Counted from the first letter of the stretch, positions 8,757 to 35,018 are shown. The stretch is 40,260 nucleotides of DNA from an uncultured bacterium (GCA_964452665.1 CAYVNB010000002.1:1-40260), one strand, 5' to 3'. Translations and numbers: made by a program. The notes: generated from the sequence alone by a model not told the origin.

Positions 8757-9556
8757 AATTTTGATTTTAATGCCATTTTAATTGGCTCCATTTTGATTTT
8801 CTCTGAAATTTTTTCTCCAAACCAAATATCAGCAGATGCTAAACCTTGAGCAATAAACATGTCTAATCCACTAACTGTTTTAATATTGGATTTTTTCCCC
8901 TTCTTCAACCATTTTGTTTCAAGGGGGTTGTATATTGTATCGGCTATTATTTGTCCTTTATGAATTTTGATTTTTGGTATGGATTCGATATCAGGCCACA
9001 TACCGATGGGGGTGCAATTGATGATAATTTGGTGATGTTGTGACGTATTAAGTTGTTCAAGTTGCGATGCTTTTATGGAAGATATTTCCCCAATCCATTT
9101 GGTGAACTGGCTTGCTTTTTCAATAGTACGATTCACAACTGTGATTGATTGTACTTTAGCTTGGATGAGCGCATAAGCTACTGCACGTGCTGCACCGCCG
9201 GCACCCAGTATAACACATTTTTTTTCATTTAAATCGATACAATTAATCTCCATAGCTTTGGCAAATCCAATCCAATCGGTATTGAATCCTTTAGATTTAT
9301 GAATACAATTCACAGCACCAATAATTTGAGCAGCATCATCCAATTCTTCCAAAAAGGGAATAATGGACTGTTTGTGAGGCAGAGTGACATTAAACCCGTT
9401 TAAATGGTTTGAATTCATGAATAAATGGATCGAATCATCCTTCACTCGAATTTTTTTATATTCAGCTTTAATATCAAGTTGCCTATAAATCTCACCATGA
9501 AGGGTTGAGCTTAAACTATGGGCAATCGGATCACCAATAACAGCAAATCGCTTCAT
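8750..9556 (-). CDS. aroE: Shikimate 5-dehydrogenase
   Basis: Motifs NVTLPHK and the NADP-binding GAGGAARAV are present. Confidence 0.9.
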   Translation of the reverse strand: MKRFAVIGDPIAHSLSSTLHGEIYRQLDIKAEYKKIRVKDDSIHLFMNSNHLNGFNVTLPHKQSIIPFLEELDDAAQIIGAVNCIHKSKGFNTDWIGFAKAMEINCIDLNEKKCVILGAGGAARAVAYALIQAKVQSITVVNRTIEKASQFTKWIGEISSIKASQLEQLNTSQHHQIIINCTPIGMWPDIESIPKIKIHKGQIIADTIYNPLETKWLKKGKKSNIKTVSGLDMFIAQGLASADIWFGEKISEKIKMEPIKMALKSKLC

Positions 9557-10815
9557 TGAGTTAATCTTTCCAATTCATCATAAAACCCCGGATAGGAAAT
9601 AAACGCGCATTCGGGATAGTCTAAAATTATATCGCCATCAGTAATGAGCCCGGCAGTAGTGAAGGCCATGGCAATCCGGTGGTCATGGAATGTTTCAATT
9701 TCAGCGCCCTTTAATTGTGTTGGTCCTTGAATAATAAATCCATCTTCTAATTCTTCTACATTGCCACCCATTTTTTTCAAATTATTGCAGATAGCATGAA
9801 TCCTGTCGCATTCTTTCACCCGCAATTCTTCGGCGCCCCGAACATCAGTTTTTCCATTTGCTTGAGTGGCAAGAATGGCAAGAATAGGCAATTCGTCAAT
9901 TAATCCCGGTACATCATTTTTGGAAATTGAGATGCCCTGCAATGATTGGTGAAACACGCGTAAATTTCCCAGTGACTCTCCTGCTTTTTCCCATTGTTTA
10001 AGGTATTCTATTCCTGCGCTCATTTTTTTAAGAGCACTAAAAAATCCAATTCGAGTTGGATTTTTCAAAATACGATTCAGAATCAAATCAGAGCTTGGTA
10101 TCATGGCTGCAGCGGCAGCAAAAAATGCTGCTGTTGATGGATCACTCGGTACCACCAAATTGATGGGAGATAAAGGCCAGGAAGTCTTGGTGATGGTTTT
10201 TGTAAGGCCATCTGATGAAAGATTAGCTCCCATACTTTTTAGCATCCTTTCAGTATGATCTCTAGAAAGAAGCGGTTCAGTTACGGATGTTTCTCCTTCC
10301 GCACCTAGCCCTGCCAGAAGAATGGCAGATTTCACTTGGGCACTCGCGACCGGTGAATCATAATGAATGCCTTTCAAATCACTTTTGAGAATCTTCACCG
10401 GTAATTTTCCATTATTACTTTCTGATTTCAATCCCATTTGAGATAAGGGATCTAAAATACGATTCATGGGACGGGAAGAGAGAGAATCATCTCCAACCAA
10501 GGTTGTATTAATGCCATTCATGCCTAAAAGTCCTAAAAGCAATCGTGCTGTAGTACCAGAATTACCGCAGTCTAATGGTTGGATTGGATCAGAAAATTTC
10601 CCTCCAGTTACGATGACATCCTCACTATCATTTTGAAATTGAATACCACAGGCTTCCAGACAGGATCGGGTTGATTGCACATCGGCACCAGTAGAAAGGT
10701 TGGTAATTCGAGATTCACCATCTGAAATGGCAGCAAACATAAGCGCTCGGTGGGAGATGGATTTATCTCCCGGTAATGTAATTGCACCTTTAATGGCCAT
10801 TGGCTTTAAGTTCAT
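9553..10815 (-). CDS. aroA: 3-phosphoshikimate 1-carboxyvinyltransferase (EPSP synthase)
   Basis: Motifs [10 protein letters not shown] and [12 protein letters not shown] are present. The start is ambiguous (TTG 10821, ATG 10815, ATG 10800), and every option overlaps the DAHPS 3' end. Confidence 0.9.
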
Positions 10816-12133
10816 CTGCAATTAAAAAAGCCAGTTCAATAGCTTGATTTGCATTAAGACGTGGATCACAGTGAGTGTGATAACGGTTTGAGAGATCTGC
10901 TTCAGAAATATCATCTAATCCACCTGTGCATTCTGTCACATTTTGGCCAGTCATTTCTAAATGAATCCCGCCCAAACGTGATCCAGCATTTTTGTGTATT
11001 CGGATATTTTCTTTTACTTCTTCTAATATTTTGTTAAATGGTCGTGTTTTTATTCCATCAGATCTTTTAATAGTATTGCCATGCATTGGGTCACAAGACC
11101 AAACAACAGTCCTGCCTTCGTCTTGTACTTTTTGAATCAATTTCGGCAAATAGGAAGAAACTTTTTCATGGCCAAATCTAGTAATTAGTGTAATCCTGCC
11201 TGCCTCATCATTAGGATTAAGAATATCCAACAGTTTGATCAATTCATCAGTATCCAAAGATGGACCACATTTTATACCGATAGGATTTTTGATTCCACGG
11301 CAAAATTCTACATGTGCGCTTTCTTCGAATCGTGTGCGATCTCCAATCCAAACGAAATGGGCTGACATATTATATACATCACCAGATGTCGAGTCAACGC
11401 GAGTCAGTGCTTCTTCGTAAGGGAGTAACAATGCTTCATGGCTCGTGTAATAATGAACCTGTCGTAGCTGAGGTGTATTTCCGGTATTAATTCCCAAGGC
11501 TTCCATGAAATTCAAACTCTCTTGGATCTGGTGAGCTAAGTAGCGATACCGTTCACCTTGGGGACCACTTTTCACAAATCCCATATTCCAAGAATTCACA
11601 TGGTGCAGATCCGCATAGCCACCATCGGCAAAAGCACGAAGCAAATTAAGTGTTGATGCAGCTTGGGAATAAGCCTTCAGCATCCGCTCTGGATTTGGAA
11701 TACGCTTTGATTTATCAAATTTTATATCATTAATAATGTCGCCGGAATAACTGGGGAGTTCAACCCCATCTTTAGTTTCTGTTGGGCTGGATCGTGGCTT
11801 GGCAAATTGACCTGCCATTCGACCCACTTTCACCACAGGGAGATTGGCACCGGATGTTAAAATAATTGCCATCTGTAAAATGACACGAAATGTATCTCGA
11901 ATATTATCGGCATGAAATTCCGTGAAGCTTTCGGCGCAATCACCGCCTTGCAATAGGAAACCATTTCCTTGTGCCACATCAGCCAGGGAGCGTTTTAAGG
12001 AACGCACCTCACCGGCAAAAACAAGGGGCGGAAAATCCTTTAAAGTTTTTTCCACTTCTCTTAAATGATCCTGATCAGGGTAATTGGGAATATGTTTGGC
12101 GGTAAAATTTCGCCAGCTGTTAGTCTGCCACAT
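10790..12133 (-). CDS. 3-deoxy-7-phosphoheptulonate (DAHP) synthase, class II
   Basis: The size is about 447 aa. The N-terminus SWR..A.H.PNYPD and the motifs [12 protein letters not shown] and IGDRTR are typical of class II (plant/actinobacterial-type) DAHPS. Confidence 0.9.
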
Positions 12134-12216
12134 GTTGTACTTTCTTTAAGTGACTATCCAAAGATTCCGTCGCCAAAATTTAAATTGATCATGGCTGTCT
12201 CGAATATTATTCATTA

Positions 12217-12984
12217 TCATTTTCCTTTCAATTTTTGTATCAAAAATTTGGTTGCTTCAACAGGGTCAGATTCCCCATCCATATTTTTAATAATGGCTGA
12301 TCCCACTACGACGCCGTCTGAATGTTCATTGAACCAAGTGACATCATCCCTTGTACTGATTCCGAAACCAACAACAAAGGGTGTAGTACTATTTTCACGG
12401 ACTCTATTTAGGTATTCGGCTAATGTATCTCTGGAGACCAGATCATTTCCGGTAATACCCAAGATGCTAACAGCATAAATGAGATCGCCTGCTAATTCAG
12501 AAATTTGTTTAATCCGTTCATTAAATGTATTAGGCGCCACCAACAAAATAGGGGAGACACCTTTTCCTTTTGCCAATTCACAAAATGGCTCAGCTTCATC
12601 CAATGGAAGATCGGGAAGGATCAACCCATCTACGCCGGCTGAAATACAACGATGCAAAAAGGTCTCATGGCCCATTTTCAAAATTGGATTATAATACCCC
12701 ATAAGCGCTAACGGGACTTGGGTTCGACTTCGGATTTCTGCTACCTGCTCAAAAATTTTGTTTAAAGTCATCCCATTATCTAATGCCTGTTGGCTGGATG
12801 CCTGGATGACAGGGCCATCTGCTTGGGGGTCGGAAAAAGGGATGCCAATTTCAACCATATCTGCACCTGCATCGGCGGCGGCACAAACCAATTCCACAGT
12901 GCTGTCCAACTTCGGATATCCGGCGGTGAGAAATGGAATAAGCATTTCTTTGGGTTCACTAAATAATGACTGAATCCTATTCAT
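12217..12984 (-). CDS. trpA: Tryptophan synthase alpha chain
   Basis: Motif [15 protein letters not shown] is present. There is a 4-nt overlap with trpB. Confidence 0.95.
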
Positions 12985-14189
12985 AACTTAATCCCCAATG
13001 CGTCTGCAACGGTGTGGACATCCTTATCTCCACGGCCAGAAAGGCAAACCACCACATCTTCATTTGGTGCGATACCATTATTTAATTGTCGCAGATAAGC
13101 CAGGGCATGGGCTGACTCCAATGCTGGTAAGATACCTTCTTTTTCAGAGAGCCACTTGAAGTTGTCCAATGCTTCTTGATCAGTGGCAGAATGGTATTCT
13201 ACCCGTCCAGATTCATTTAAATAACTGTGCTCCGGGCCAATGCCGGGATAATCCAGTCCAGCAGAAATAGAATGGGGGAGTGTGATCTGTCCGTCGTCAT
13301 CCTGAAGCAGAGTGGATGCAGCACCATGTAAAACACCAAAGTCACCCTTGGTCAATGTGGCGGCGTGCTCTCCGGATTCAAGTCCTTTGCCTGCCGCTTC
13401 TACACCAATAATTTTTACATCATATTTCAGGAATGGATAAAATAATCCCAAGGCGTTTGATCCACCGCCAACGCAGGCCACTAATCGATCTGGTAAATCC
13501 TTGCCAGACTGATTTGCAAATTGTTCCTTTGCTTCCTTGCCGATGATTGATTGAAAATCCCGTACCAACATAGGGTAGGGGTGGGGGCCCACGGTAGAGC
13601 CGATGAGATAATAAGTAGATTCTACATTGGTAACCCAATCCCGTATGGCTTCGTTTGTGGCATCTTTCAATGTCATACTTCCGGAAGAAACGGGGCGGAC
13701 TTCTGCCCCCAATAAATTCATTCGAAATACATTAAGCTTTTGACGCCGGATGTCTTCTTCCCCCATATAGACGACGCATTCCAGCCCAAACCGTGCAGCG
13801 ACGGTAGCCGTTGCTACACCATGCTGGCCAGCGCCGGTTTCAGCAATGATACGTTTTTTCCCCATGCGGTTGGCCAATAAGATTTGACCCAATGCATTAT
13901 TGATCTTATGAGCGCCGGTGTGATTCAAGTCTTCCCGTTTAAGCCAAACGTTGAATCCCAGTTCTTCAGAAATTCTTTCTGCATGATAAAGAGCCGTTGC
14001 CCGTCCGGAATAATGATTCAATAAGGTGGTTAATTCATTTTGGAATTTGAAATCATCCATTGCCTCTATGTAATGGCGTTCCAAGTCTTCCAGAGCAGGG
14101 ATGAGTGTTTCAGGGACGTACTTTCCTCCAAACTTTTCAAAATGCCCCTTGGAATCGGGGAGATTATAATTATTAAATTTATCTTCCAT
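12981..14189 (-). CDS. trpB: Tryptophan synthase beta chain
   Basis: Motifs [11 protein letters not shown] (PLP-binding Lys) and GGGSNA are present. Confidence 0.96.
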
Positions 14190-14193
14190 ATTT

Positions 14194-14865
14194 TTAAGTG
14201 TTCATACGTTTAAGTGTTAGACTGTCCGTGAACACGTTTATACTTGAACAGGTTTCTTTGAGTTTAGTAAAAAGTGTTTTCATTTTATTGTGATCTTTTA
14301 TTCCTGGTGATTTTTCAATCCCGCTATTCACATCAACTGCTGCAGGATTTACAGATTCAATTGCATCCATAATATTATTTGGGTTGAGCCCTCCGGATAA
14401 AATAATTGGCGTGTCAGACTTTCTTTTCAAAAAGGACCAATTGAATGTTTCACCGGTTCCCCCATAAGCATCTTTGGAAAAGGTGTCTAATAAAAATGCA
14501 TCTACTTTGTAGTTATCCATGGCAGCCATGCTGGCTTCATTTTTGATACGAAGCGCCTTTATCACGGGCACACTAATCTGATTGCAGAATTCAGGGGATT
14601 CATCGCCATGGAGTTGGATCAAATCCAATGGAATGCTTTGGATTGCATCATCAATAAATGATTTATCGTGATTCACAAAAACGCCCACTTTTGCCATACG
14701 GTTTTGGGTGTGATTGGCGATGGATTTTACTTTATCAATCGATATGGCTCGGGGACTATTGTCATAAAAAATAAACCCGATGGCAGACGCACCATGGTCC
14801 TCGGCGCATTTAGCATCCGCTAAATTGGTTATGCCGCAAATTTTGATGGGGATCATGACAGGCAC
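14194..14865 (-). CDS. trpF: Phosphoribosylanthranilate isomerase
   Basis: The N-terminus has KICGIT and the gene sits between trpC and trpB. The start could also be the ATG 9 nt downstream. Confidence 0.88.
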
Positions 14866-15614
14866 CCAATCAATGCTTCCAAAGCTTTCCCGGGATACCC
14901 TGTTTTCATGAGAGATGTTCCCACCAGCACTGCATCGTAACTCAGGTCCGCCAAATATTTCAAATCATCGTTTGTTTTGATCCCGCTTTCAGCCACCTTT
15001 ATAGATCCACTTGGTAGGCGAGGTGCCATACTTGCAAAATAGGAAATATCCGTGGTCATAGTCTTGAGATCACGGCAATTGACGCCCACAATCTCCGGTG
15101 CGATTTCAGCAACAATATCTGCATTTTCTTCGCTGTGAAATTCCACGAATGCTTCCAGATTTAATTCCTTCCCAAAGTTGATAAATGCATCAATGTCATG
15201 TTGGCTCAAAGCTTCTGCAATCAATAAGAAAGCATCTGCCCCTGCGCATGCAGCTCCCATGATTTGGTGATCACTAATGATAAAATCTTTCCGCAAAACT
15301 GGAATGGATACAGCTTTTTTCACGGACTCCAAAATATCAATATGCCCACCAAAAAATTGTTTATCAGTAAGTACAGAAATGGATGCAGCCCCGGCCGATT
15401 CATAATCTTTGGCGATTTGCACCGGATCCCCATTGGGGAGAATATTTCCTTCACTGGGAGACTTCATTTTAATTTCTGCGATAACAGATATTCCGGGAGC
15501 AGAAAGGGCATTCTTCAGGCTCAACGTATCGAATGGTTCAACCACACCTGCATAAGGGTGCATGCGTTCCATTTCTTTCCGTTTTACGGCTAATATTTGT
15601 TCAAGGATGTTCAT
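14853..15614 (-). CDS. trpC: Indole-3-glycerol phosphate synthase
   Basis: Motif VIAEIKMKSPSEG (IAExKxxSPS) is present. There is a 4-nt overlap with trpD. Confidence 0.93.
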   Translation of the reverse strand: MNILEQILAVKRKEMERMHPYAGVVEPFDTLSLKNALSAPGISVIAEIKMKSPSEGNILPNGDPVQIAKDYESAGAASISVLTDKQFFGGHIDILESVKKAVSIPVLRKDFIISDHQIMGAACAGADAFLLIAEALSQHDIDAFINFGKELNLEAFVEFHSEENADIVAEIAPEIVGVNCRDLKTMTTDISYFASMAPRLPSGSIKVAESGIKTNDDLKYLADLSYDAVLVGTSLMKTGYPGKALEALIGCLS

Positions 15615-16606
15615 TTTGTTAATTGCTTGAGTATATTGAGCGCTGCACCGGAATCCACTGATTCAGTTGCTTTCCTTAGTCCTTCTCTTAGGCTTTTGGC
15701 TTTGCCGCCCACCACAATTCCAGCGGCAGCATTTATCAAAACAATATCCCGTTTGGATCCTTTTTCTCCATTTAAAATATTGCGGATTGTTTCCGCATTT
15801 TCTTTTGGTTCTCCACCTTGAAGCTCATCCAGAGACACACGAACTAATCCCAAATCAATGGGATCAAATTCAAAGGTTTCCACAGGACCGCTATTTTGAA
15901 TTTGGCTGATTTTTGTTGTAGCGGTGGTGGATATTTCATCCAGACCATCTCGTCCGTGGAAGACCATTACTTTGGTAGAGCCCAGTGCCTTTAATACATT
16001 GGCTTGGATCTCGGTTAAATCGGCGTGAAAGATGCCCATGGCCTGGGCCTTCACATCGGCAGGATTGCACAGTGGTCCTAAAATATTGAATACCGTGCGA
16101 GTGGCCAAAGCAGTTCTAGCCCCGACAGCATATTTCATTGCGGGGTGGTATGCTGGAGCAAACATGAATCCTAATCCAATTTCTTCAATATCTGCCGTGG
16201 ATCCTTCCACCGGTTTATCAATGGCAATTCCCAAAGCCTGGAGCACATCCGCTGATCCAGATTTGGATGTCATGGAGCGATTCCCATGTTTGGCCACATG
16301 AATGCCGGCGCCTGCCACCACAAAAGTAGCGGTGGTAGAAATATTGAATGTCCCCAATGCATCACCGCCAGTACCGCACATATCAATGGCAGGTGTTTCT
16401 AATGGGACTTTGACCATTTTCTCCCGCATGGCTTGGGCGAATCCAGTTATCTCATCTACTGTTTCACCTTTTGATCTTAACGCCATTAAAAATCCGGCGA
16501 TCTGTGCATCATTATATTCTCCGGACATGATGGAGAGCATTATACTAAATGCGTCGTCTCGGGCAAGATTTTGGTTATCTAATAATTGTTCTAATATTTG
16601 TTTCAT
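15611..16606 (-). CDS. trpD: Anthranilate phosphoribosyltransferase
   Basis: Motifs CGTGGDALGTFNIST and KHGNRS are present. Confidence 0.94.
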   Translation of the reverse strand: MKQILEQLLDNQNLARDDAFSIMLSIMSGEYNDAQIAGFLMALRSKGETVDEITGFAQAMREKMVKVPLETPAIDMCGTGGDALGTFNISTTATFVVAGAGIHVAKHGNRSMTSKSGSADVLQALGIAIDKPVEGSTADIEEIGLGFMFAPAYHPAMKYAVGARTALATRTVFNILGPLCNPADVKAQAMGIFHADLTEIQANVLKALGSTKVMVFHGRDGLDEISTTATTKISQIQNSGPVETFEFDPIDLGLVRVSLDELQGGEPKENAETIRNILNGEKGSKRDIVLINAAAGIVVGGKAKSLREGLRKATESVDSGAALNILKQLTK

Positions 16607-16660
16607 TATATTCTCACGTACCCTGAGTTTTCAGAATGGGACTTTCATGTTTTGAGAGGT

Positions 16661-17230
16661 TCAACATTCGATTTCTAAAAAATTTCTAATGATTTGTTTT
16701 CCTTTCTCCGTCGCAATGGATTCAGGATGAAACTGTACCCCGAAAACAGAATGGGATTCATGTTGAATTCCCATGATCAAGCCATTACCTGATTGGGCAA
16801 TGATTTGTAATTCTTTCGGAAGTGAATCTTTTTCCGCCACCAATGAATGATATCTTGTTGCGGTGAATGAACCATTTAACCCTTTGAATAAAGCCGATTC
16901 TTTGTGTTGAATGTTTGTAGTCTTTCCATGGATAATTTCCGATGAATGCACCACCTTTCCGCCATAGGCGATAGTAATGGCTTGATGGCCAAGACAGACC
17001 CCAAGTATGGGAGTGGTCGCCCCATACTTTTTTATAACATTTACTGAATGTCCTGCAGTTTCTGGTCGGCCGGGGCCAGGTGAAATCACTATATGGGATG
17101 GTTGCCATTGATTAATATCATCTAAATCGAATTGGTCATTCCGTATCACTTTCACTTTTGGATTCATGGCTCCAATATATTGAACCAAATTATAGGTGAA
17201 GGAGTCGTAGTTGTCGATAACCAAAATCAC
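16661..17230 (-). CDS. trpG: Anthranilate synthase component II (glutamine amidotransferase)
   Basis: Motifs MILVIDNYDSFTYNL, GVCLGHQ (catalytic Cys) and QFHPES are present. An ATGA overlap links it to trpE. Confidence 0.92.
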   Translation of the reverse strand: MILVIDNYDSFTYNLVQYIGAMNPKVKVIRNDQFDLDDINQWQPSHIVISPGPGRPETAGHSVNVIKKYGATTPILGVCLGHQAITIAYGGKVVHSSEIIHGKTTNIQHKESALFKGLNGSFTATRYHSLVAEKDSLPKELQIIAQSGNGLIMGIQHESHSVFGVQFHPESIATEKGKQIIRNFLEIEC

Positions 17231-18711
17231 ACCGATAATCCATTCTCTGCAAAATCAATGGCCGCCATGATGGCCTTTGCCTTATTCACCGTTTCTTCAA
17301 ATTCTTTGGTTGGGTCCGAATCATGGATGATACCTGCCCCAGACTGAAAATGAACCACGCCATGTTTTATTACCATTGTGCGGATGGCAATACACGTATT
17401 TACATTACCTGTAAAATCAAAAAACCCTACAGCACCGGAATAAATATTTCGCCTTTCAGGTTCCAATTCGTAAATAATCTCCATGGCACGAATCTTGGGT
17501 GCGCCTGTGACCGTCCCTGCCGGGAATCCACTCATAAGCGCATCGAAGGGATTTTTATTATTAGCCAACTTTCCTTTCACATCAGAAACAATATGCATGA
17601 CGTGTGAATAATTTTCGATCACCATATTTTCCGGTATAGTAACGGAGCCAAATTCAGAAACACGGCCCACATCATTTCGTCCCAGATCCAATAGCATGAG
17701 ATGTTCGGCGCATTCTTTCTCATCATTCATTAAGTCTTGGGCCAATGCTTTATCTTCAACTTCAGAGTTGCCCCGTGGGCGTGTACCGGCAATTGGCCTG
17801 ATTTCTACAGTACCGTCTTCAATTTTCACAAGGAGTTCCGGCGATGCGCCAATAATATCAAAATCATTAATCTTCAAATGAAACATGTAGGGTGATGGAT
17901 TAATATTCCGCAATGCACGGTACAGGGTGGCAGGTGCCACGGAAGTTTGGCGCTGGAATCTTTGGCTTAAAACAAGCTGAAAAATGTCCCCATCCACAAT
18001 ATACTGTTTTGCTTTTCGAACTGCGGATTCGAATTCATCCTGATGAAAATTGGATGAGACTTCACTTTTCTCCACCCAGACAGGCGTTTTGTAATCCACG
18101 TCTGAATAAAGGGATTCAACAATCATATTCACTCGGGCGTGGGCTGCGTCAAATTGGGATTGGAGATCTTCATCTGGTTCTACATTTATATTAGAAATAA
18201 CCAGTGCAGATCCCTTTAAATGGTCAAAGGCGACCATGTCTTCAAATACCATGAAAACAGCATCGGGGACGTCCATGGCAGAATCGGTGTGGGTGGGAAT
18301 ATCTTCGATCCAAGCGATAGTTTCATAGCCGAGATAGCCCACCAATCCCCCGGTGAAAGCAGGAATGCCCGGAAGTTTTACCATATTATACTGGGCTTGG
18401 GTTTCCCGGAGTAAATCAAGATAAGGTGTTTCCACTTCAATGGTTTGATCATCTTCGGTAATGGTAGTTTTTCCATCCTTGTGCGTCAGAATTTTTCGTG
18501 GATTAACACCTACATAAGAATATCGGACGTATTGATTCCCTTTTTCTACTGATTCCAGCAAAAAGGCATATTCAGCTTTTTGGGATAAATGTACCCAGGC
18601 TGTCACAGGTGTAAGCAGGTCTGCTAATATCCTTTTATAGACTGGGACAGTCAAACAATCTTGGGAGACCAAGTTTTGAAATTCGTCATATGTGAGTTGT
18701 GTTTTATCCAT
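17227..18711 (-). CDS. trpE: Anthranilate synthase component I
   Basis: Motifs LLESVE, GAVGFFD and GAGIIHDSDP are present. I prefer the ATG at 18711 (MDKTQL...) over the TTG at 18720, which lies inside the U-run of the upstream terminator. Confidence 0.93.
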   Translation of the reverse strand: MDKTQLTYDEFQNLVSQDCLTVPVYKRILADLLTPVTAWVHLSQKAEYAFLLESVEKGNQYVRYSYVGVNPRKILTHKDGKTTITEDDQTIEVETPYLDLLRETQAQYNMVKLPGIPAFTGGLVGYLGYETIAWIEDIPTHTDSAMDVPDAVFMVFEDMVAFDHLKGSALVISNINVEPDEDLQSQFDAAHARVNMIVESLYSDVDYKTPVWVEKSEVSSNFHQDEFESAVRKAKQYIVDGDIFQLVLSQRFQRQTSVAPATLYRALRNINPSPYMFHLKINDFDIIGASPELLVKIEDGTVEIRPIAGTRPRGNSEVEDKALAQDLMNDEKECAEHLMLLDLGRNDVGRVSEFGSVTIPENMVIENYSHVMHIVSDVKGKLANNKNPFDALMSGFPAGTVTGAPKIRAMEIIYELEPERRNIYSGAVGFFDFTGNVNTCIAIRTMVIKHGVVHFQSGAGIIHDSDPTKEFEETVNKAKAIMAAIDFAENGLSV

Positions 18712-18718
18712 TTTGAGC

Positions 18719-18748
18719 AAAAAAAAACCCCGATCGAGGTCGGGGTTT
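18719..18748 (-). terminator. Intrinsic terminator immediately upstream of trpE (candidate attenuator terminator)
   Basis: The minus-strand RNA reads AAACCCCGA-ccucga-UCGGGGUUUUUUUUU. The stem pairs 18740-18745 with 18728-18733, extendable by AAA/UUU, and is followed by 9 U (18727-18719). The trpE ATG is 8 nt after the U-run. Confidence 0.7.
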
Positions 18749-18947: not shown

Positions 18948-20078
18948 CTATAATCCTTTAATAAATAGTTTCATCACTTCGTAACAATTGACTAAACTGG
19001 ATTCAGAGACCCATTCGTCAATGGCATGAGCACCATGACCTGCAGGCCCAAATAAAATGGAAGGGATCCCTACCTGAGATGCCAGAGCTGAATCGGCCCA
19101 GTAAGACATTCCATTATACCTTTGTTCTCCTGCAGCTTCACATAATTTTTCTATCAACTCATCACCATCTACTTCATTAGGCGGACGGCTGAAAATCTCG
19201 GTTCCTGATACTGTATGTTTGCCTGGTGCATTTTCGACAGCCTTGATAACTCTATCCAATTCAAGCTCCAATTTTTCTTTTGGTTCTCCTGGAAGTGTTC
19301 GTCGCTCCCAGTTTAATATAGCTTCTGCAGCGATCACACTTTGAGCAGATCCACCTTGGATTATACCAGGATGAAGCGTGGGGACACCAAGATATGGATG
19401 AGGGTTTTCTTTTGATAGTTCTAAATTGATTTTTTCTAATTCATTTAAAGCTCGAGATAGTGGAAAAATTGCATTAATCCCCTGCTCAGGTCGACTTCCA
19501 TGGGCGGCAAGACCATATATCTTTAACTCGTACCATACGTATCCCTTATGGCTTATGCCTATAGCTTCTTCAGTGGGCTCCATAAATATACCCAGGAACG
19601 GTTTGGTGGGAAGTTTGGGGAGGTAATTTTTAACCAAATGCTCCATGCCTAAGCTGAGGTTTTCTTCATCCGCCACAAAAGTAAATGCCAATGAAATGGG
19701 ACAGTCGTTCTCAGAAAAATACTTTGCCAACCCCATTTGGACGGAACAGCCGGCCAGCATATCATAGGTGCCTCGGCCATAAAGGTAATCCCCTTCTTTG
19801 CGAAGTGTAAAGGGATCATTCATCCCTTCAATTCCAACTGTATCTATATGGCCATTCATAAGCAGAATTCTTTTTGGATCTTTTCCCTCTAATAATGAAG
19901 TTGTATTAGAGCGGTCATCCTTAATGGTGTGGATTTTTGATGGTATATTTAACCCTTTGAAATAAGTATGAATATATTGCGCGATCTCATGTTCACCTTG
20001 GCCCTCCTTTGATAGATCCGGATTGACTGAATTGATCGCTACAAGGTCAGTAAGGATATGGATTAGTTCTTGTTTCAA
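18948..20078 (-). CDS. M20 family metallopeptidase (ArgE/DapE/ACY1-like)
   Basis: Motifs MNGHIDTVG, FVADEE and GPAGHGAHAIDE are present. I place the start at TTG 20078 (MKQELIHILTDLVAINSV), which has AGGAG 7 nt upstream and gives a typical 376 aa. The 489-aa ORF is an over-extension. Confidence 0.8.
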   Translation of the reverse strand: MKQELIHILTDLVAINSVNPDLSKEGQGEHEIAQYIHTYFKGLNIPSKIHTIKDDRSNTTSLLEGKDPKRILLMNGHIDTVGIEGMNDPFTLRKEGDYLYGRGTYDMLAGCSVQMGLAKYFSENDCPISLAFTFVADEENLSLGMEHLVKNYLPKLPTKPFLGIFMEPTEEAIGISHKGYVWYELKIYGLAAHGSRPEQGINAIFPLSRALNELEKINLELSKENPHPYLGVPTLHPGIIQGGSAQSVIAAEAILNWERRTLPGEPKEKLELELDRVIKAVENAPGKHTVSGTEIFSRPPNEVDGDELIEKLCEAAGEQRYNGMSYWADSALASQVGIPSILFGPAGHGAHAIDEWVSESSLVNCYEVMKLFIKGL

Positions 20079-20187
20079 AAATAGGCTCCTAACAGAAAGG
20101 AAGGTAGGTGTGAAAAGAAAACAGATGCAAGAACGGTACGGCTTGGGTAGATTCAATTCAAATTCACGAGAGATAAGAGGAATAATT

Positions 20188-21849
20188 ATGAATAAAAAAA
20201 TCATGTTGGCGATCATGTTGATCTGGGTTTTTGGGTGTGAACAAAAAACTATTTCAACTTCAGATTTGATTTCAGCGGAAAAAATTGCAGGCTTGGAATA
20301 TACAACTTCAGAACGTGACTCATTACTTTCACCAGGTGCAAGTTTAGTTTCCGCAAGTATAAGTGGGTTGGTTAAACAATACGAGTCTATCCGCGAATTA
20401 GGTATGGCCAATGACATCCCATTTCCATTATTCTATGATCCTTTGCCAAGTGGAGTAAAACCACCTTTTGGACGCGATAAATTTAATTTTAATTCAAAAA
20501 TAGTTTCTCGTCCAGAAAAAATAGAGCTTTGTGCATTCATGACTATTCCTGAATTGTCATATCTTTTACGTACACAACAGGTGACTTCCGAAGAATTAAC
20601 ACGGATGTATATTCAACGGTTAAAGAAATATGGCTCTGAGCTTGAATGCGTGGTTACTATTACAGAAGAATTAGCCATCGATCAGGCTCGAAAGGCTGAC
20701 ATGGAAATAGCGCGCGGGAAATATCGCGGCCTGCTCCATGGTATCCCCTGGGGAGCAAAAGATCTACTATCCGTGCCTGGTTATAAGACGACCTGGGGAG
20801 CCATGCCCTACAAAGATCAAATCTTGGATGAAAAAGGGACAGTTGTAAAAAAACTAGAAGCAGCAGGGGCTGTATTAGTGGCTAAATTAACTTTGGGGGC
20901 TTTGGCCTGGGGCGATGTATGGTATGGTGGAAAAACGAGGAATCCTTGGAATTTGGAACAAGGGGCCAGCGGTTCTTCGGCGGGGCCTGGCTCAGCGACT
21001 GCGGCAGGACTAGTAGGCTTTTCAATTGGTTCTGAAACTTTGGGTTCTATTGTTTCCCCATCGACTCGGAACGGTGTTACGGGTCACCGTCCATCTTTTG
21101 GCACGGTAAGTCGGGCTGGTGCAATGGCTTTGAGCTGGACCATGGATAAATTGGGACCGATGACACGATCTGTAGAAGGCGCTGCAATTGTCTTTGAAAC
21201 TATTCGCGGTGCAGACCATATAGACAGGACGGTAATTGATGTCCCATTTCAATATCCATCTAATAATCGGTTAAAAAATCTGCGTGTAGGTTATGTCGCC
21301 TCAGCCTTTGCTGATACTATAGTTTCAGATAATGATAAAAGAGCACTGGCAGTTCTTGATTCTCTGGAGTTTGATCTTATTCCTATAGAATTGCCAAATT
21401 TTCCATCTGGTGCTTTATCCTTTATTTTACAAGCGGAAGCCGCTGCCGCTTTTGACGCATTAACGCGGTCAAATCAGGATGACAAAATGGTGCGGCAAGT
21501 CAAAGCCGCGTGGCCACATGTATTACGTGAAGCTCGTTTTATCCCAGCAGTAGATTATATTAATGCCAATAGAGCGCGAACTATTTTAAATCAAAAAATG
21601 GCCGAATTAATGAGTCAAGTAGATGTGTATATAGTTCCCTCTTTTTATGGAGATAATTTGCTTCAGACTAACTTGACAGGTCATCCATGCGTTGTGGTAC
21701 CTAATGGCTTCAATAAAAAAGGGTCGCCCACCAGTATTAGTTTCATTGGAGGTTTATATGAGGATGGGAATGTTTTGGCAGTGGCCAATGCTTATCAAAC
21801 CGCTACCAGTTGGCATAAAAAATATCCGCCCAAGTATGAAAAACCATAA
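20188..21849 (+). CDS. Amidase-signature family amidase, lipoprotein
   Basis: The start is ATG 20188 (MNKKIMLAIMLIWVFGCEQ, lipobox) preceded by AAGAGG. AS motifs are present: GIPWGAKD, GASGSSAGPGSA, GSETLGSIVSPS. Confidence 0.85.
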   Translation: MNKKIMLAIMLIWVFGCEQKTISTSDLISAEKIAGLEYTTSERDSLLSPGASLVSASISGLVKQYESIRELGMANDIPFPLFYDPLPSGVKPPFGRDKFNFNSKIVSRPEKIELCAFMTIPELSYLLRTQQVTSEELTRMYIQRLKKYGSELECVVTITEELAIDQARKADMEIARGKYRGLLHGIPWGAKDLLSVPGYKTTWGAMPYKDQILDEKGTVVKKLEAAGAVLVAKLTLGALAWGDVWYGGKTRNPWNLEQGASGSSAGPGSATAAGLVGFSIGSETLGSIVSPSTRNGVTGHRPSFGTVSRAGAMALSWTMDKLGPMTRSVEGAAIVFETIRGADHIDRTVIDVPFQYPSNNRLKNLRVGYVASAFADTIVSDNDKRALAVLDSLEFDLIPIELPNFPSGALSFILQAEAAAAFDALTRSNQDDKMVRQVKAAWPHVLREARFIPAVDYINANRARTILNQKMAELMSQVDVYIVPSFYGDNLLQTNLTGHPCVVVPNGFNKKGSPTSISFIGGLYEDGNVLAVANAYQTATSWHKKYPPKYEKP

Positions 21850-29732: not shown

Positions 29733-29854
29733 TTTTTCTCCGAATCATAATGAAGAAGTAAATGGGAATAGGGGGATTCTTCCAAGAGATAATCGGATCA
29801 ATTGTTTCATCTGCAATCCTACCTTATTTTCCTGATAGAGGAATACAAGGTTTC

Positions 29855-30667
29855 ATGAGAATTGCTTTAATACAACAATACGCTTCTGAGGATATTGAAG
29901 CCAATATCCAGCGCGGATTAGACAATCTGGACAAAGCGGCGGCTCAAGGTGCAGAGGTGGCTGTCTTTGCGGAACTGGCCTTCACACGATTCTACCCCCA
30001 ATATTTGGCCGAAGGAGATGTATCCCATTTGGCAGAACCGGTTCCCGGCCCCACAACAGAAAAATTCATGGCGAAAGCTAAAGCACATAATATGGTGGTC
30101 ATCATCAATTTATTTGAATTGGACAATGGAAAAACTTACGATTCATCTCCGGTGATTGATGCGGACGGCACCTTGCTAGGTACCACCCGAATGGTCCATG
30201 TGGCAGACTATGAATGCTTTTATGAAAAAAGCTATTATGCTGAAGGCAACCATGGTGCCCCTGTCTATAACACAGCGAGGGGAAAGATTGGTGTGGCCAT
30301 TTGTTACGACCGTCATTATCCGGAATTTATGCGTGCATTGGGCGTAAATGGGGCAGAGGTGGTGGTCATCCCCCAGGCCGGTACCGTGGGGGAATGGCCC
30401 GGTGGGCTCTACGAAGCGGAATTGCAAGTGGCTTCTTTTCATAATGGTTATTTTTGCGCCTTAGCCAATCGTGTGGGTAAAGAAGATCAAATGGAATTTG
30501 CCGGTGAATCGATCATCACAAATCCGGAAGGAAAGGTAATTGCCCAAAGTCCTGCCAGTGTGGATGATATTTTGATCCATGATCTGGATCTATCTGAAGT
30601 ACCCCGTTCCCATGCCAGAACCATGTTCTTCCGTGACAGACGCCCCGACATTTACCCTTTGAGTTAA
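29855..30667 (+). CDS. Carbon-nitrogen hydrolase (nitrilase superfamily)
   Basis: I prefer the start at ATG 29855 (MRIALIQQ..., typical for the family). Motifs VFAELAF (Glu) and KIGVAICYDRHYPE (Cys) are present. Confidence 0.85.
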   Translation: MRIALIQQYASEDIEANIQRGLDNLDKAAAQGAEVAVFAELAFTRFYPQYLAEGDVSHLAEPVPGPTTEKFMAKAKAHNMVVIINLFELDNGKTYDSSPVIDADGTLLGTTRMVHVADYECFYEKSYYAEGNHGAPVYNTARGKIGVAICYDRHYPEFMRALGVNGAEVVVIPQAGTVGEWPGGLYEAELQVASFHNGYFCALANRVGKEDQMEFAGESIITNPEGKVIAQSPASVDDILIHDLDLSEVPRSHARTMFFRDRRPDIYPLS

Positions 30668-30668
30668 T

Positions 30669-31310
30669 ATGACTGAATACCCTAGACTTTATTCATTCCG
30701 CCGGTGACCCTGGGCCATGCGCGCCAGGATGGCGTTATCCTATGCTGACATCAAAGTAGAATTACGAGAAGTCCTTTTATCTGATCGGCCAAAAGAACTC
30801 TATGATGCCTCACTCAAGGGAACCGTCCCTGTGCTGCAACTCGCTGATGGGATGGTCATTGATGAGAGTTTTGATATTATGGTGTGGGCCTTAAATCAGA
30901 CAGATACGGATTGGAAAGATCTGGATTTAGATAAACAATTAGCAATAATAAAAATAAATGATGAAGATTTCAAACCATGGTTGAATAAGTATAAATACCA
31001 TATTCGTCATCCGGATCATCCACGGAAATATTACCAAGAAAAATGTGATGAGACCCTTTCCCCGTATGAATCTGTTTTGAATGACAGCCACTACCTCATG
31101 GGAGATAAGTCCCAGTGGGCCGATGTGGCAATCCTCCCATTCGTTCGTCAATTTGCCCATGTGGACCTGCCCTATTTCGAATCGGCCTATCCAAAATTAG
31201 ATCGATGGCTGAATGAGTGGAAAACATCAGATCTATTTCAGTCCATCATGAAAAAATATATACAATGGCAACCCGATCATAACCCCCTCATCGTTTCATT
31301 TGGGTCTTGA
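30669..31310 (+). CDS. Glutaredoxin-like GST N-domain family protein; candidate selenoprotein with in-frame UGA at 30705-30707 (conventional call 30717-31310)
   Basis: The frame reads MTEYPRLYSFRR-UGA-PWAMRARMAL... and continues into the called ORF. The body has SPKGTVPVL-like and LPFVRQFA motifs of this GST-like family. ATG 30669 lies 1 nt after the upstream stop (TAAtATG). Confidence 0.5.
30708..30741 (+). promoter_or_regulatory. Candidate SECIS-like hairpins downstream of the in-frame UGA
   Basis: Hairpin 1 pairs CCUGG (30709-30713) with CCAGG (30724-30728), extendable by GC/GC with one bulge, with loop CAUGC. Hairpin 2 is AGGAU (30726-30730)-GGCGUU-AUCCU (30737-30741). The two are mutually exclusive, and I have not evaluated either energetically. 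Confidence 0.3.
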
Positions 31311-31330
31311 TCTTGCCGTAATTTCTGGGA

Positions 31331-32377
31331 ATGAAAAAAGAAGTTTTATACAATAAAAAGAGCCGTGAGCTTCTCATGGCTGAATTACAGGCTGAATCCT
31401 TTGAGCGGATCACCTGTTCTTTTTATCGCTATATCAATATTGATAATCCAATAGCCCTTCGGGATGATCTCTACCGGGAATGGTCTTCCCTCAATATTTT
31501 TGGCCGAATTTATCTCGCCATAGAGGGAATCAATGCTCAGTTTAGTTGTCCTAAACAAAATTGGGACGCATTCAAAGCCAATCTGTCATCTCGTGAAATC
31601 TTGAAAGATATGAACTTAAAAGTTGCCTTACAGGATGGGGAATCATTCTATAAGCTCACGATCAAAATTAAAGATGAAATTGTAGCATACGGTGTTAGAG
31701 AGGATGAATATGAAATGTCCAAAGTAGGCCACCATCTATCTGCAGAAGCCTTTAATGAAAAACTCGCCGATGAAAATACGTTAGTGGTTGATATGCGAAA
31801 TTATTATGAAAGTGAAGTGGGCCGATTTGAAAATTCCATTATCCCTGATGTCGATACATCACGAGAGCTCCTACCCGAAGTGAAACGCCTTTTACAAGGC
31901 CATGAGCAGGATGAAGTTTTACTTTATTGTACCGGGGGCATCCGCTGCGAAAAGGCCAGTGCCTATCTCATTAACAGCGGCTTTGAGAAAGTAAATCAGC
32001 TAAATGGGGGTATTATCCAATATGCCCATGATGTGAAAGAAGAGGAGTTGGATTCTAAATTTATTGGCAAAAATTTTGTTTTTGATGCCCGCATGGGAGA
32101 ACGGGTGACCAATGATGTGATCGGTAAATGCCATCAGTGCGGAGTGCCTGCAGATCGCCATCTCGATTGCGGCAACGAATCCTGCCATATTTTATTTATC
32201 CAATGTGATGACTGTAATCAACAATACGACGGTTGCTGTTCTGCAGAATGCCAGGAATTTGCCGCATTGCCAGTTGAGGAACAGCAGATGTTACGGAAAG
32301 ATCCAGAGAAGGTGGTCTCAAACGCACGATATTCCAGCCGAATCAAACCGAAGCTGACTGAAATCAATCAATCGTAA
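31331..32377 (+). CDS. trhO: Rhodanese-domain tRNA uridine(34) hydroxylase (UPF0176/YceA family)
   Basis: It has the rhodanese active-site loop LLYCTGGIRCEKASAYL and a C-terminal Cys-rich tail, CHQCG...C..C...C..C. Confidence 0.85.
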   Translation: MKKEVLYNKKSRELLMAELQAESFERITCSFYRYINIDNPIALRDDLYREWSSLNIFGRIYLAIEGINAQFSCPKQNWDAFKANLSSREILKDMNLKVALQDGESFYKLTIKIKDEIVAYGVREDEYEMSKVGHHLSAEAFNEKLADENTLVVDMRNYYESEVGRFENSIIPDVDTSRELLPEVKRLLQGHEQDEVLLYCTGGIRCEKASAYLINSGFEKVNQLNGGIIQYAHDVKEEELDSKFIGKNFVFDARMGERVTNDVIGKCHQCGVPADRHLDCGNESCHILFIQCDDCNQQYDGCCSAECQEFAALPVEEQQMLRKDPEKVVSNARYSSRIKPKLTEINQS

Positions 32378-32592
32378 TGAACGTACCAGAAGGGCCGTTC
32401 ATAATATTGGCGAAATGGCCGCCCCACAATGGCTGTATAAATCCATCCCGCCAGCCAAAAAGCAATCACTGCTGGTAGAATAATATTGATCAATATGGAA
32501 AATACGCCCAGCACAAATAAAAGGGCGAAAGGTAATATCACCGCCATACTGATATAAGGATGTTTCAGCATAAATTGTTGCAGTTTATTCAT
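32368..32592 (-). CDS. Small hypothetical membrane protein (two predicted TM helices)
   Basis: The 74-aa product has hydrophobic stretches ISMAVILPFALLFVLGVFSILINIILPAVIAFWLAGWIY. Its 3' end overlaps the trhO 3' end by 10 nt. Confidence 0.5.
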   Translation of the reverse strand: MNKLQQFMLKHPYISMAVILPFALLFVLGVFSILINIILPAVIAFWLAGWIYTAIVGRPFRQYYERPFWYVHYD

Positions 32593-32765
32593 AATGGTTC
32601 TTTTTAATTATCATCAAGCAAAAACTATGCTAATCACCATAAATTGCCAAATTGGTTTCAGGATATGACGGTTTGGCAGGTGGGTGATAGTTTCTTCTTC
32701 ATTTTCATTCGTCGGTAATTTAGTTTCTCCACCCCAGTAAACCATTTCATTTGAGGAGGAAAAGA

Positions 32766-35018
32766 ATGAAATATAATTTTATAGGATTACTTTTGATTAT
32801 ATCGGCTTGCGGACAGCCGCCTGCAGTGGAGACTCGCGATCCAAAAATAGAACAAGTATCTACATTTGATGTGGCCTTAGATGTAGCCACCCAGCGCGAT
32901 TTGGAATCCCGATTCGACCAAGTATTGAATCCGCAAAATTTAAACGACTGGATGAAGCATATGTCATCTAAACCACATCATGTGGGTTCGCCCTGGAGCA
33001 AACAGAATGCGGAATTTGCGGCCAAATTATTTGAATCCTGGGGATTTGAATCAGAGATTGAGACATTCGATGTAATGGTTCCATTTCCAAAGATTCGGAA
33101 ACTGGAATTGGTGGCACCCAAAAAGGTTACGCTTCAATTGCATGAGCCGGCATTGAAAGAAGATGCCACTTCAGGAATTACAAAAGATGTATTGCCCGGT
33201 TATAATGCATTTTCTGCCGATGGAAATGTGACTGCAGAATTGGTTTTTGTGAATTATGGCATTCCAGCGGACTATGAAGAACTGGCACGGATGGGAATCG
33301 ATGTGAATGGCAAGATTGTATTGGCGAAGTATGGCGGTTCATGGCGGGGGATTAAACCGAAAGTGGCTTATGAACAAGGGGCCATCGGTTGTATAATGTA
33401 TTCCGATCCAAAAGATGACGGATATGTGAGGGGAGATGTATACCCCAAAGGTCCGTTTAGAATGGAACATGGTATCCAGCGTGGATCAGTTTTAGATATG
33501 CCCATGTATCCCGGTGATCCATTAACGCCGGGTTATGGTGCCAAGGGTGATGTAGAACGGCTTTCAATTGAGGATGCGCCGACAATTATGAAAATTCCAG
33601 TGATGCCCATTTCTTACGCGGATGCATTGCCCTTGCTGAAAGCGTTGGAAGGTCCTGTGGCGCCGGATAATTGGAAAGGGGGCTTAGCCATCACCTACCA
33701 TGTAGGGCCGGGTCCAGCGAAAGTGAATCTCCACTTGGAATTTGAATGGAAATTGCGGACGGCATATAATCCCGTAGCGCGGATGAAAGGTTCTGTATAT
33801 CCTGATGAGTGGATTATGCGGGGTAACCACCATGATGGTTGGGCCCAAGGGGCAGCGGATCCCATCAGTGGTATGGTTGCTCTTATGGAGGAAGCCAGGG
33901 CCATTGGCGAATTGGTGAAGACTGGATGGCGGCCAAAACGAACCTTAATTTATGCAGGGTGGGATGCGGAAGAGCCTGCATTACTTGGATCAACAGAATG
34001 GGTGGAATACCATCGGGATGATATTCGAGAAAAAATGGTAGCCTATATCAATACGGATGGAACCGGTGTAGGATTTTTAGGTGTAGGGGGGTCTCATGCT
34101 TTAGAAAAATTTGTTAATGAAGTCGTATCTGAAGTGCGGGATCCTATTCAAAATGTGACTCTTCAGGATCGTCTTCGAGCTCGCCTTCGTGTGAATGGGG
34201 ATAAAGATTCAGAGCGGGATGACCTGCGCATCTATCCATTGGGTGCGGGATCAGATTATACAGCATTCATTCACCATGCAGGTGTCCCCTCACTGAACTT
34301 GGGTTTTGGTGGTGAAAGTAGTGGTGGCTCTTACCATTCGATCTATGATTCATATGACCATTATACCCGATTCAGCGATGGTGATTTTAAATATGGTGTT
34401 ACCCTGGCGAAAGTGAATGGGCGATTGGTTTTGCGTTTGTCTGAATCAGATATTTTACCATTCAGGTTCACCAATATGGCTGAGAATATCAGTACATTCA
34501 TTGAAAGCAATAAAAAATTTGCAGAACTGGTAAAAAAGAAAACAGAACAACGGAATAAGCTTTTAGATCAGAATGCTTATACCATCGCCGGTAATCCTCA
34601 AAAAACATATTTGCCTCCCAATCGTTTAGATGATTTGCCTGCATTTGATTTCAGTCCTTTGGATGGTGCCCACAAACGTTTGGAAGTAAGTGCATGGAAA
34701 TATGAAAAAGCGTTGGCTGGATTACAAAAAAGATCTCTGTCGGCTGAACAAAAATCTCAGATTAATCGGTTATTAAAGGATGTAGAACAGGCCATGACCC
34801 ATCCGGATGGCTTACCCCGTCGTCCATGGTTCCAAAATATGATCTATGCACCAGGCTTTTATACCGGATATGGCGTGAAAACTCTTCCCGGAATCCGTGA
34901 AGGATTGGAAGAGCGGAATTGGGACGAAGTGCATAAATATATTGAAGAAGTGGCTAAAGCACTGGATCGCGCATCGGTAAAGATCAATGCAGCCATCCAG
35001 ATTTTAGAGGGGAGTTAA
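32766..35018 (+). CDS. M28 metallopeptidase, glutamate carboxypeptidase II / transferrin-receptor-like (PA + M28 + TfR-dimer domains), lipoprotein
   Basis: The start is ATG 32766 with AGGAGG 6 nt upstream; the ORF-track TTG at 32751 overlaps that RBS. The signal peptide carries the lipobox IISACG. Motifs RGNHHDGW, WDAEEPALLGSTEW, GAGSDYTAF and YHSIYD are present. Confidence 0.88.
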   Translation: MKYNFIGLLLIISACGQPPAVETRDPKIEQVSTFDVALDVATQRDLESRFDQVLNPQNLNDWMKHMSSKPHHVGSPWSKQNAEFAAKLFESWGFESEIETFDVMVPFPKIRKLELVAPKKVTLQLHEPALKEDATSGITKDVLPGYNAFSADGNVTAELVFVNYGIPADYEELARMGIDVNGKIVLAKYGGSWRGIKPKVAYEQGAIGCIMYSDPKDDGYVRGDVYPKGPFRMEHGIQRGSVLDMPMYPGDPLTPGYGAKGDVERLSIEDAPTIMKIPVMPISYADALPLLKALEGPVAPDNWKGGLAITYHVGPGPAKVNLHLEFEWKLRTAYNPVARMKGSVYPDEWIMRGNHHDGWAQGAADPISGMVALMEEARAIGELVKTGWRPKRTLIYAGWDAEEPALLGSTEWVEYHRDDIREKMVAYINTDGTGVGFLGVGGSHALEKFVNEVVSEVRDPIQNVTLQDRLRARLRVNGDKDSERDDLRIYPLGAGSDYTAFIHHAGVPSLNLGFGGESSGGSYHSIYDSYDHYTRFSDGDFKYGVTLAKVNGRLVLRLSESDILPFRFTNMAENISTFIESNKKFAELVKKKTEQRNKLLDQNAYTIAGNPQKTYLPPNRLDDLPAFDFSPLDGAHKRLEVSAWKYEKALAGLQKRSLSAEQKSQINRLLKDVEQAMTHPDGLPRRPWFQNMIYAPGFYTGYGVKTLPGIREGLEERNWDEVHKYIEEVAKALDRASVKINAAIQILEGS

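Follow-up and report, generated by a model that had tools for sequence, protein, structure and literature searches.

Four selenoproteins named "Glutathione S-transferase" are listed in the Sargasso Sea supplement of Zhang, Fomenko and Gladyshev 2005 (PMC1088965). Two of them belong to the family considered here: AACY01575427 (MEYPILYSFRRuPYAIRARLAL...) and AACY01615117 (MEYNKYPILYTFRRuPWAIRARMAL...). The same reads are found under #GST in the GOS supplement of Zhang and Gladyshev 2008 (PMC2398784), with a tally of 12 Sec sequences and 1,036 with Cys, and reviews of 2022 and 2026 (PMC9312934, PMC13188914) carry a "GST-like protein (PF13409)" as a prokaryotic selenoprotein known by prediction only. 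The 2005 group also contains a second, unrelated subfamily (AACY01041448, AACY01726075), with the site ..LISFVTuPWVQRAVIVL.. and 27% identity over 67 residues to the protein analyzed below; hence Sec was acquired independently at least twice within what the reviews call "GST-like selenoprotein".

We analyzed a stretch of 40,260 nucleotides from an uncultured bacterium, referred to below as the window, in which an initial annotation had placed an in-frame UGA at the catalytic cysteine of a glutathione S-transferase (GST). In BLASTP comparisons the window protein matches the published members at 53% over 147 amino acids (E 8e-58) and 55% over 95 amino acids (E 5e-37), with U at the same alignment position. 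It has the same site, ..LY[ST]FRRuP[YW]AIRAR[ML]AL.., and falls in the same domain family (GST_N_2). The published sequences also have a hairpin with AGG in its loop (CGA GCT AGG CTA GCT C in AACY01575427 and CGT GCC AGG ATG GCA C in AACY01615117). Because site and hairpin are both shared, the window gene is, as far as prediction goes, one more member of a known selenoprotein family that was defined by computation and described in 2005, and is not new; it differs from the published members in being a different orthologue. Knowledge of the recoding itself is unchanged by the window gene. What is added to the family is a covariation-supported minimal SECIS (6 bp, GGN loop), a set of natural Sec/Cys alleles, which are possible matched enzymes for assessing the benefit of selenium in a Cys-type GST, and a taxonomic home: the Sargasso and GOS papers give no organism, whereas here the TGA forms come from Marinimicrobia/Neomarinimicrobiota (SAR406) and one Caldithrix MAG.

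The gene consists of 213 codons and a stop, with a single internal TGA (Table 1), and its frame reads MTEYPRLYSFRR*PWAMRARMAL on translation. This agrees with the initial annotation, which had described the frame as open upstream of ATG 30717 save for one TGA and had pointed to an ATG 1 nt after the stop of the carbon-nitrogen (CN) hydrolase ORF. An automatic ORF caller puts the start at ATG 30717, for a product of 197 amino acids, and the databases carry only this part (30717-31310). Across the family, 23 of 25 distinct TGA orthologues have an ATG 11-16 codons 5' of the TGA, and ATG 30669 is strongly supported as the true start by these comparisons. In the public records (GenBank, IMG and ENA), the orthologues appear as truncated "glutathione S-transferase" products of 192-198 amino acids without the catalytic residue, for example MEA1882319.1, MBT6416958.1, MBN4081043.1 and MFL3024974.1. 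One 90%-cluster member of the truncated product was seen on 239 contigs, whereas a look-up of the window's exact 197-aa product among encoding contigs gave no record. The correct product very probably has 213 amino acids with U13, and the database entries are very probably mis-annotated. The practical value of this result lies in annotation, as an abundant marine gene is recorded without its catalytic residue.

Table 1. Features of the selenoprotein locus and its neighbors, in window coordinates
Feature	Position	Strand	Remarks and basis
Carbon-nitrogen hydrolase gene	29762-30667	+	Pfam CN_hydrolase, E 1.9e-48; next to the GST gene in almost every TGA-type and close Cys-type locus
Full coding sequence of the predicted selenoprotein	30669-31310	+	213 codons and stop, U at residue 13; translation, Pfam, full-length Cys homologues
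Start codon ATG	30669-30671	+	1 nt 3' of the TAA stop (30665-30667) of the CN-hydrolase gene
In-frame UGA, predicted Sec residue 13, motif R-R-U-P-W-A	30705-30707	+	Aligns with GSTO1 Cys32; Sec/Cys pair
Bacterial SECIS hairpin (predicted)	30721-30735	+	RNAalifold; covariation; Sec versus Cys contrast
5' arm GCGCCA	30721-30726	+	
Loop GGA, closed by A-U	30727-30729	+	
3' arm UGGCGU	30730-30735	+	
Stop codon of the gene, TGA	31308-31310	+	Translation; stop-codon count
UPF0176/rhodanese gene (TrhO-like)	31331-32377	+	Pfam UPF0176_N, Rhodanese, Rhodanese_C; conserved synteny
74-aa ORF	32368-32592	-	No Pfam match

We fetched the DNA of the closest protein clusters and the next tier described below, and of relatives taken from metagenomes and from a single genome of each species; the site was readable in 162 loci. 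The codon is TGA in 30 of these, TGC in 77 and TGT in 55, the last two making 132 Cys loci, within the motif LYSFRR[C/U]P. The TGA carriers are Marinimicrobia/Neomarinimicrobiota MAGs, unlabelled marine contigs and one Caldithrix MAG; specifically, TGA orthologues came from 13 species-representative genomes, the Caldithrix MAG and metagenome contigs, making 23-25 distinct sequences, the most divergent of which share approximately 47-53% protein identity with the window. Every proteobacterial homologue among the loci fetched has Cys. The closest clusters covering the N-terminal region (60-96% identity) are all annotated as 192-198 amino acids, starting MRARMAL or MAL, and those with source names belong to Candidatus Marinimicrobia and one Caldithrix abyssi MAG. 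Relatives 94-96% identical to the window protein were seen in newer metagenomes only. The next tier of homologues consists of 213-aa proteins that start MRKYPRLYSFRRCPWAIRARMAL; such full-length Cys homologues, for example P0013, align with the window protein across the N-terminal segment. The UGA is aligned with the catalytic Cys32 of human and rat GST omega-1 (RIYSMRFCPFAERTR against RLYSFRRCPWAMRAR). Its proposed location at the catalytic Cys of a Cys-type GST is thus borne out, and the flanks of the codon are conserved as protein.

The 12 codons 5' of the TGA deserve separate treatment. Among the 25 distinct TGA sequences they are kept as protein while synonymous change is free: all six Arg codons occur at the two Arg positions before the TGA (-2 and -1), six codons are used at Leu-6, and P-x-L-Y-[ST]-F-R-R is retained. 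Synonymous variation is present on both sides of the UGA. The ATG at 30717 in the window is an Ile codon in 16 of the 25 TGA orthologues, and in 5 of the 25 the first 50 codons downstream contain no in-frame ATG. With this ATG unconserved and no ATG nearby in those five, the conserved product is not one that starts after the TGA.

Two other readings can be weighed against these data. The first is a pseudogene or a sequencing error, in which a TGC-to-TGA truncation would leave no product, or a Cys-less protein from ATG 30717. Gene callers and GenBank do annotate exactly such products of 192-198 amino acids, and within one population TGA and TGC alleles lie one base apart at the codon, so single-base changes there do happen. 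However, TGA occurs in 30 independent assemblies and in 23-25 distinct sequences with identity down to approximately 47%, the 12 upstream codons are still under protein-level selection, the ATG at 30717 is replaced by Ile or has no nearby substitute in the orthologues just mentioned, and a product from 30717 would have a thioredoxin fold deprived of its first strand and its catalytic residue. We regard such a truncation as extremely improbable. The second is termination at the UGA followed by re-initiation, giving a 12-residue leader and a separately initiated GST body, with the downstream hairpin acting in regulation or coupling. In the window, ATG 30717 lies just three codons past the UGA, but this ATG is unconserved, what would be the leader forms strand 1 of the domain, is conserved, and can be aligned with the Cys homologues position by position, and the loop and spacing of the hairpin fit the SECIS model. 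We give re-initiation next to no weight.

The initial annotation had proposed SECIS-like hairpins 3' of the UGA at CCUGG/CCAGG (30709-30728) and AGGAU/AUCCU (30726-30741). Both pairs of complementary strings exist (30709-13 with 30724-28, and 30726-30 with 30737-41), but neither is conserved: 70.8% and 54.2% of cells, respectively, are paired in the orthologues, not clearly above shuffled or slid controls. A third candidate, GCCAU/AUGGC (30714-18 with 30729-33), is 88% paired but hardly covaries; it cannot form together with the hairpin at 30721-30735 and was rejected as the conserved element. The 30721-30735 hairpin is the structure that the RNAalifold consensus of the TGA sequences gives unaided. 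It has a 6-bp stem, a 3-nt loop (GGN in the family), 19 nt from UGA to loop and an energy of -7.9 kcal/mol. The proposal of a SECIS-like hairpin therefore holds, but with other arms than those named; what had been taken as the AGGAU arm is the loop of this hairpin together with its closing A-U pair.

In a 24-sequence alignment, 98.6% of the cells of the 30721-30735 hairpin are paired, and in 15 cells both partners are changed; neither the observed pairing nor the observed covariation was reached in any of 500 column shuffles. When the 3' partner is slid by 1-3 columns, pairing falls to 20-43%. For example, the pair at alignment columns 30/42 is CG in 10 sequences, UA in 7, AU in 5 and UG in 1, while the pair at columns 33/39 is CG in 17, UG in 4, AU in 2 and UA in 1. 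Three of the six pairs are invariant, and two of those are fixed by Ala codons.

The codons of a conserved peptide, R-A-R-[ML]-A-L, make up the stem, and we therefore took as control those Cys homologues (n = 123) in which the A-R-[ML]-A core is also encoded, and compared them with 23 distinct TGA sequences. The full stem is present in 22 of the 23 TGA sequences versus 8 of the 123 Cys sequences, and the loop Arg codon is AGG in 23 of 23 versus 13 of 123. Stem and AGG occur together in 22 of 23 versus 4 of 123 (Fisher p ~5e-21; the contrasts range from ~1e-18 to 5e-21). The Arg two codons before the loop Arg varies freely in the TGA sequences.

We left the window out and built a covariance model on the 21 remaining loci and the two published Sargasso sequences; the model matches 30705-30740 at 50.5 bits (E 3e-14), a score that is partly plain homology. 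This is the sole significant match in the window, the next one scoring 9.9 bits. Folding of the window alone does no better than shuffles (z -0.57 for 30705-30750 and -1.1 for 30716-30740), and the minimum-energy fold of 30705-50 is another structure, which includes the CCUGG/CCAGG pairing. As the single-sequence fold is at chance level, only comparison with other loci shows the site to be beyond chance.

The bSECIS model given in the legend to Fig. 2 of PMC13188914 has an apical loop of 3-9 nt with G in the first two loop positions, on an upper stem of 4-16 bp, a UGA-loop distance of 16-37 nt and a minimum free energy of at most -7.5 kcal/mol. The hairpin lies within every one of these bounds, though its energy is marginal (-7.9 versus -7.5 kcal/mol). 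It resembles the SECIS elements of Escherichia coli fdhF and fdnG in being an intragenic stem-loop just 3' of the UGA, whose small apical loop has unpaired G residues and stands at a constant spacing. Unlike those, it is much shorter (6 bp, 3-nt loop), with no bulged U and no conserved lower stem. There is no sequence resemblance between them and no Rfam family for the window hairpin. Binding by SelB is suggested by analogy. An Rfam search of the window gave no match at gathering thresholds and two noise matches at E up to 10.

Of the 34 long ORFs in the window, 13 end in TGA, including this gene and the ORFs ending at 1331, 39208 and 39995, which marks TGA as a regular stop codon here. The initial annotation had cited the last three as genuine TGA stops; the count confirms this, and a code-4 or code-25 reassignment is excluded by the stop-codon usage of the window. 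Since the stop of the gene is itself a TGA, one mRNA would have UGA both as Sec and as stop. The UGA at 31308 lies approximately 600 nt from the predicted Sec UGA; the latter has a hairpin 13 nt downstream and the former has none.

The same count bears on a further reading, that a standard amino acid, such as Trp, Gly or Cys, is inserted at the UGA by way of an altered code or a suppressor tRNA, without selenium. UGA followed by C, as here, is a weak termination context, and Sec machinery was not found in the sequence searched. Specifically, ARAGORN found no tRNA-Sec in the window or in loci L001-L086 (approximately 1.2 Mb in all), and motif scans for SelA, SelB and SelD signatures over the same sequence gave nothing credible. 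On the other side stand the termination of 13 of 34 long ORFs, this gene among them, by TGA, the specific alignment of the codon with a redox-active Cys, and the covarying GG-loop hairpin, which goes with TGA and not with TGC or TGT, whereas a suppressor or a code change would need no hairpin. A standard amino acid at this site is very unlikely. For Marinimicrobia, SAR406, Marinisomatota and Caldithrix, literature searches on the use of Sec turned up only an "orphan SelD", in incomplete SAR406 single-cell genomes. In-frame TGA junctions in the window yielded no convincing candidate for another selenoprotein gene, and a BLAST-based scan of all loci for TGA/Cys pairs was dominated by off-frame and antisense matches and was too noisy to use.

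Taken with the membership of published sequences in the family, the Sec/Cys pair, the protein-level conservation upstream of the codon and the covarying hairpin at the right distance make it highly likely that the UGA encodes Sec at the active site of a GST-like enzyme in a marine Marinimicrobia bacterium. We infer that selenium is actually inserted at residue 13 and that selA, selB, selC and selD are present in the source genome. Under Sec recoding, the gene would be translated into a 213-residue Cys-type GST, omega-like or Grx2-like, with Sec as residue 13, and recoding would be directed in cis by the intragenic hairpin. By analogy with E. coli fdhF, a complex of SelB, GTP and Sec-tRNASec may bind the G-containing apical loop while the ribosome stands on the UGA, outcompete RF2 and insert Sec; the second UGA, having no hairpin, would terminate translation.

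The product, with the TGA read as Cys, matches Pfam GST_N_2, GST_N_3 and GST_C, with PF13409 as the top match, and is a two-domain GST with an N-terminal thioredoxin fold and a helical C-terminal domain. NCBIfam gave matches to glutaredoxin 2 and maleylacetoacetate isomerase far under their cut-offs (for Grx2, 43.5 and 40.5 bits against cut-offs of 133 and 186.65). The best matches among solved structures (PDB) are omega-1 GSTs, but at an E of only 2.5e-7; in addition to the catalytic position, the GSH-site residues V-P and E-S are aligned with omega GSTs. An AlphaFold2 model of P0013, the closest full-length Cys orthologue (63% identical), has a pLDDT of 96.3 and places Cys13 between strand 6-9 and helix 14-25, the classical active-site position of the thioredoxin fold. 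Foldseek returned the canonical two-domain GST fold at TM ~0.75 with no class singled out: the URE2p, phi, nu and omega classes all score TM 0.72-0.78 and cannot be told apart.

Judged by sequence and model, the protein is an omega-like or Grx2-like Cys-type GST outside the omega class proper. It shares with human GSTO1 and GSTO2 and with bacterial GrxB the two-domain GST fold, a catalytic residue at the N-terminus of helix 1 and the C-P-x-A/C motif, and differs from them in a predicted Sec in place of Cys, in a monothiol UPWA. The omega class is marked by an N-terminal extension of approximately 19 residues that packs on the C-terminus. This extension is absent from the window protein, in which β1 begins at residue 6, while the alignment begins at residue 24-31 of GSTO1 and at residue 6 of the window protein. 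The protein would function in the manner of an omega-type Cys-GST, but we did not file it in the omega class, because the extension is absent and the fold match is not class-specific; a greater closeness to omega than to other classes is not borne out by the fold. Membership of glutaredoxin 2 (GrxB) was likewise rejected, since the scores are below cut-offs and the motif is UPWA, not a CPYC dithiol. The GSH-binding site is retained, with U13-P at the N-terminus of helix 1, V53-P54 (presumed cis-proline) and E66-S67. The enzyme would most likely be a GSH-dependent thiol transferase or reductase that works through a selenenyl-sulfide intermediate with glutathione.

In a neighbor-joining tree of 154 sequences, the 27 TGA leaves all fall in one clade of 32. 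Cys forms nested in this clade (L091, L093, L098 and others) have retained the AGG codon and the full stem; these SECIS-like hairpins look like relics left by Sec-to-Cys reversion. Alleles of both kinds exist at close range: the TGA gene of L016 (10001-10642) differs from the TGC gene of L087-L090 (3001-3642) at 2 of 642 nucleotides, and these loci share 99.5-99.7% nucleotide identity over approximately 6 kb, as one Marinimicrobia population. The TGC allele is present in four independent assemblies (L087-L090) with its hairpin intact. The stem spans the codons of R-A-R-[ML]-A-L, a motif whose core, A-R-[ML]-A, hardly varies. Two stem pairs are fixed by the two Ala codons of the motif (GCN, GCN), which leaves only the wobble positions and the choice of AGG for Arg to be set. 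The family may conceivably offer a natural snapshot of Sec/Cys exchange on a SECIS largely pre-encoded by a conserved peptide, a suggestion that we put forward as speculative. If the polymorphism were maintained, for example by selenium availability, and not transient, it would amount to a within-species Sec/Cys ecotype switch.

The order of genes around the locus is conserved. The CN-hydrolase, GST and UPF0176/rhodanese genes, the 74-aa minus-strand ORF and an M28/transferrin-receptor-like peptidase gene (29762-35018 in the window) are kept in this order in Marinimicrobia and in the Caldithrix MAG, with Sec and Cys forms of the GST alike (L001-L006, L087-L090). Elsewhere in the window, the minus strand at approximately 9553-18720 holds tightly packed ORFs with stop/start overlaps, several of which end in TGA. 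By the appearance of fragments, their translations resemble tryptophan biosynthesis proteins (a TrpG/PabA-like ...VQFHPESI... and a TrpB-like C-terminus). Two long ORFs, 18948-20417 on the minus strand and 20023-21849 on the plus strand, overlap by approximately 395 nt; the TTG start of the latter was probably called too far upstream.
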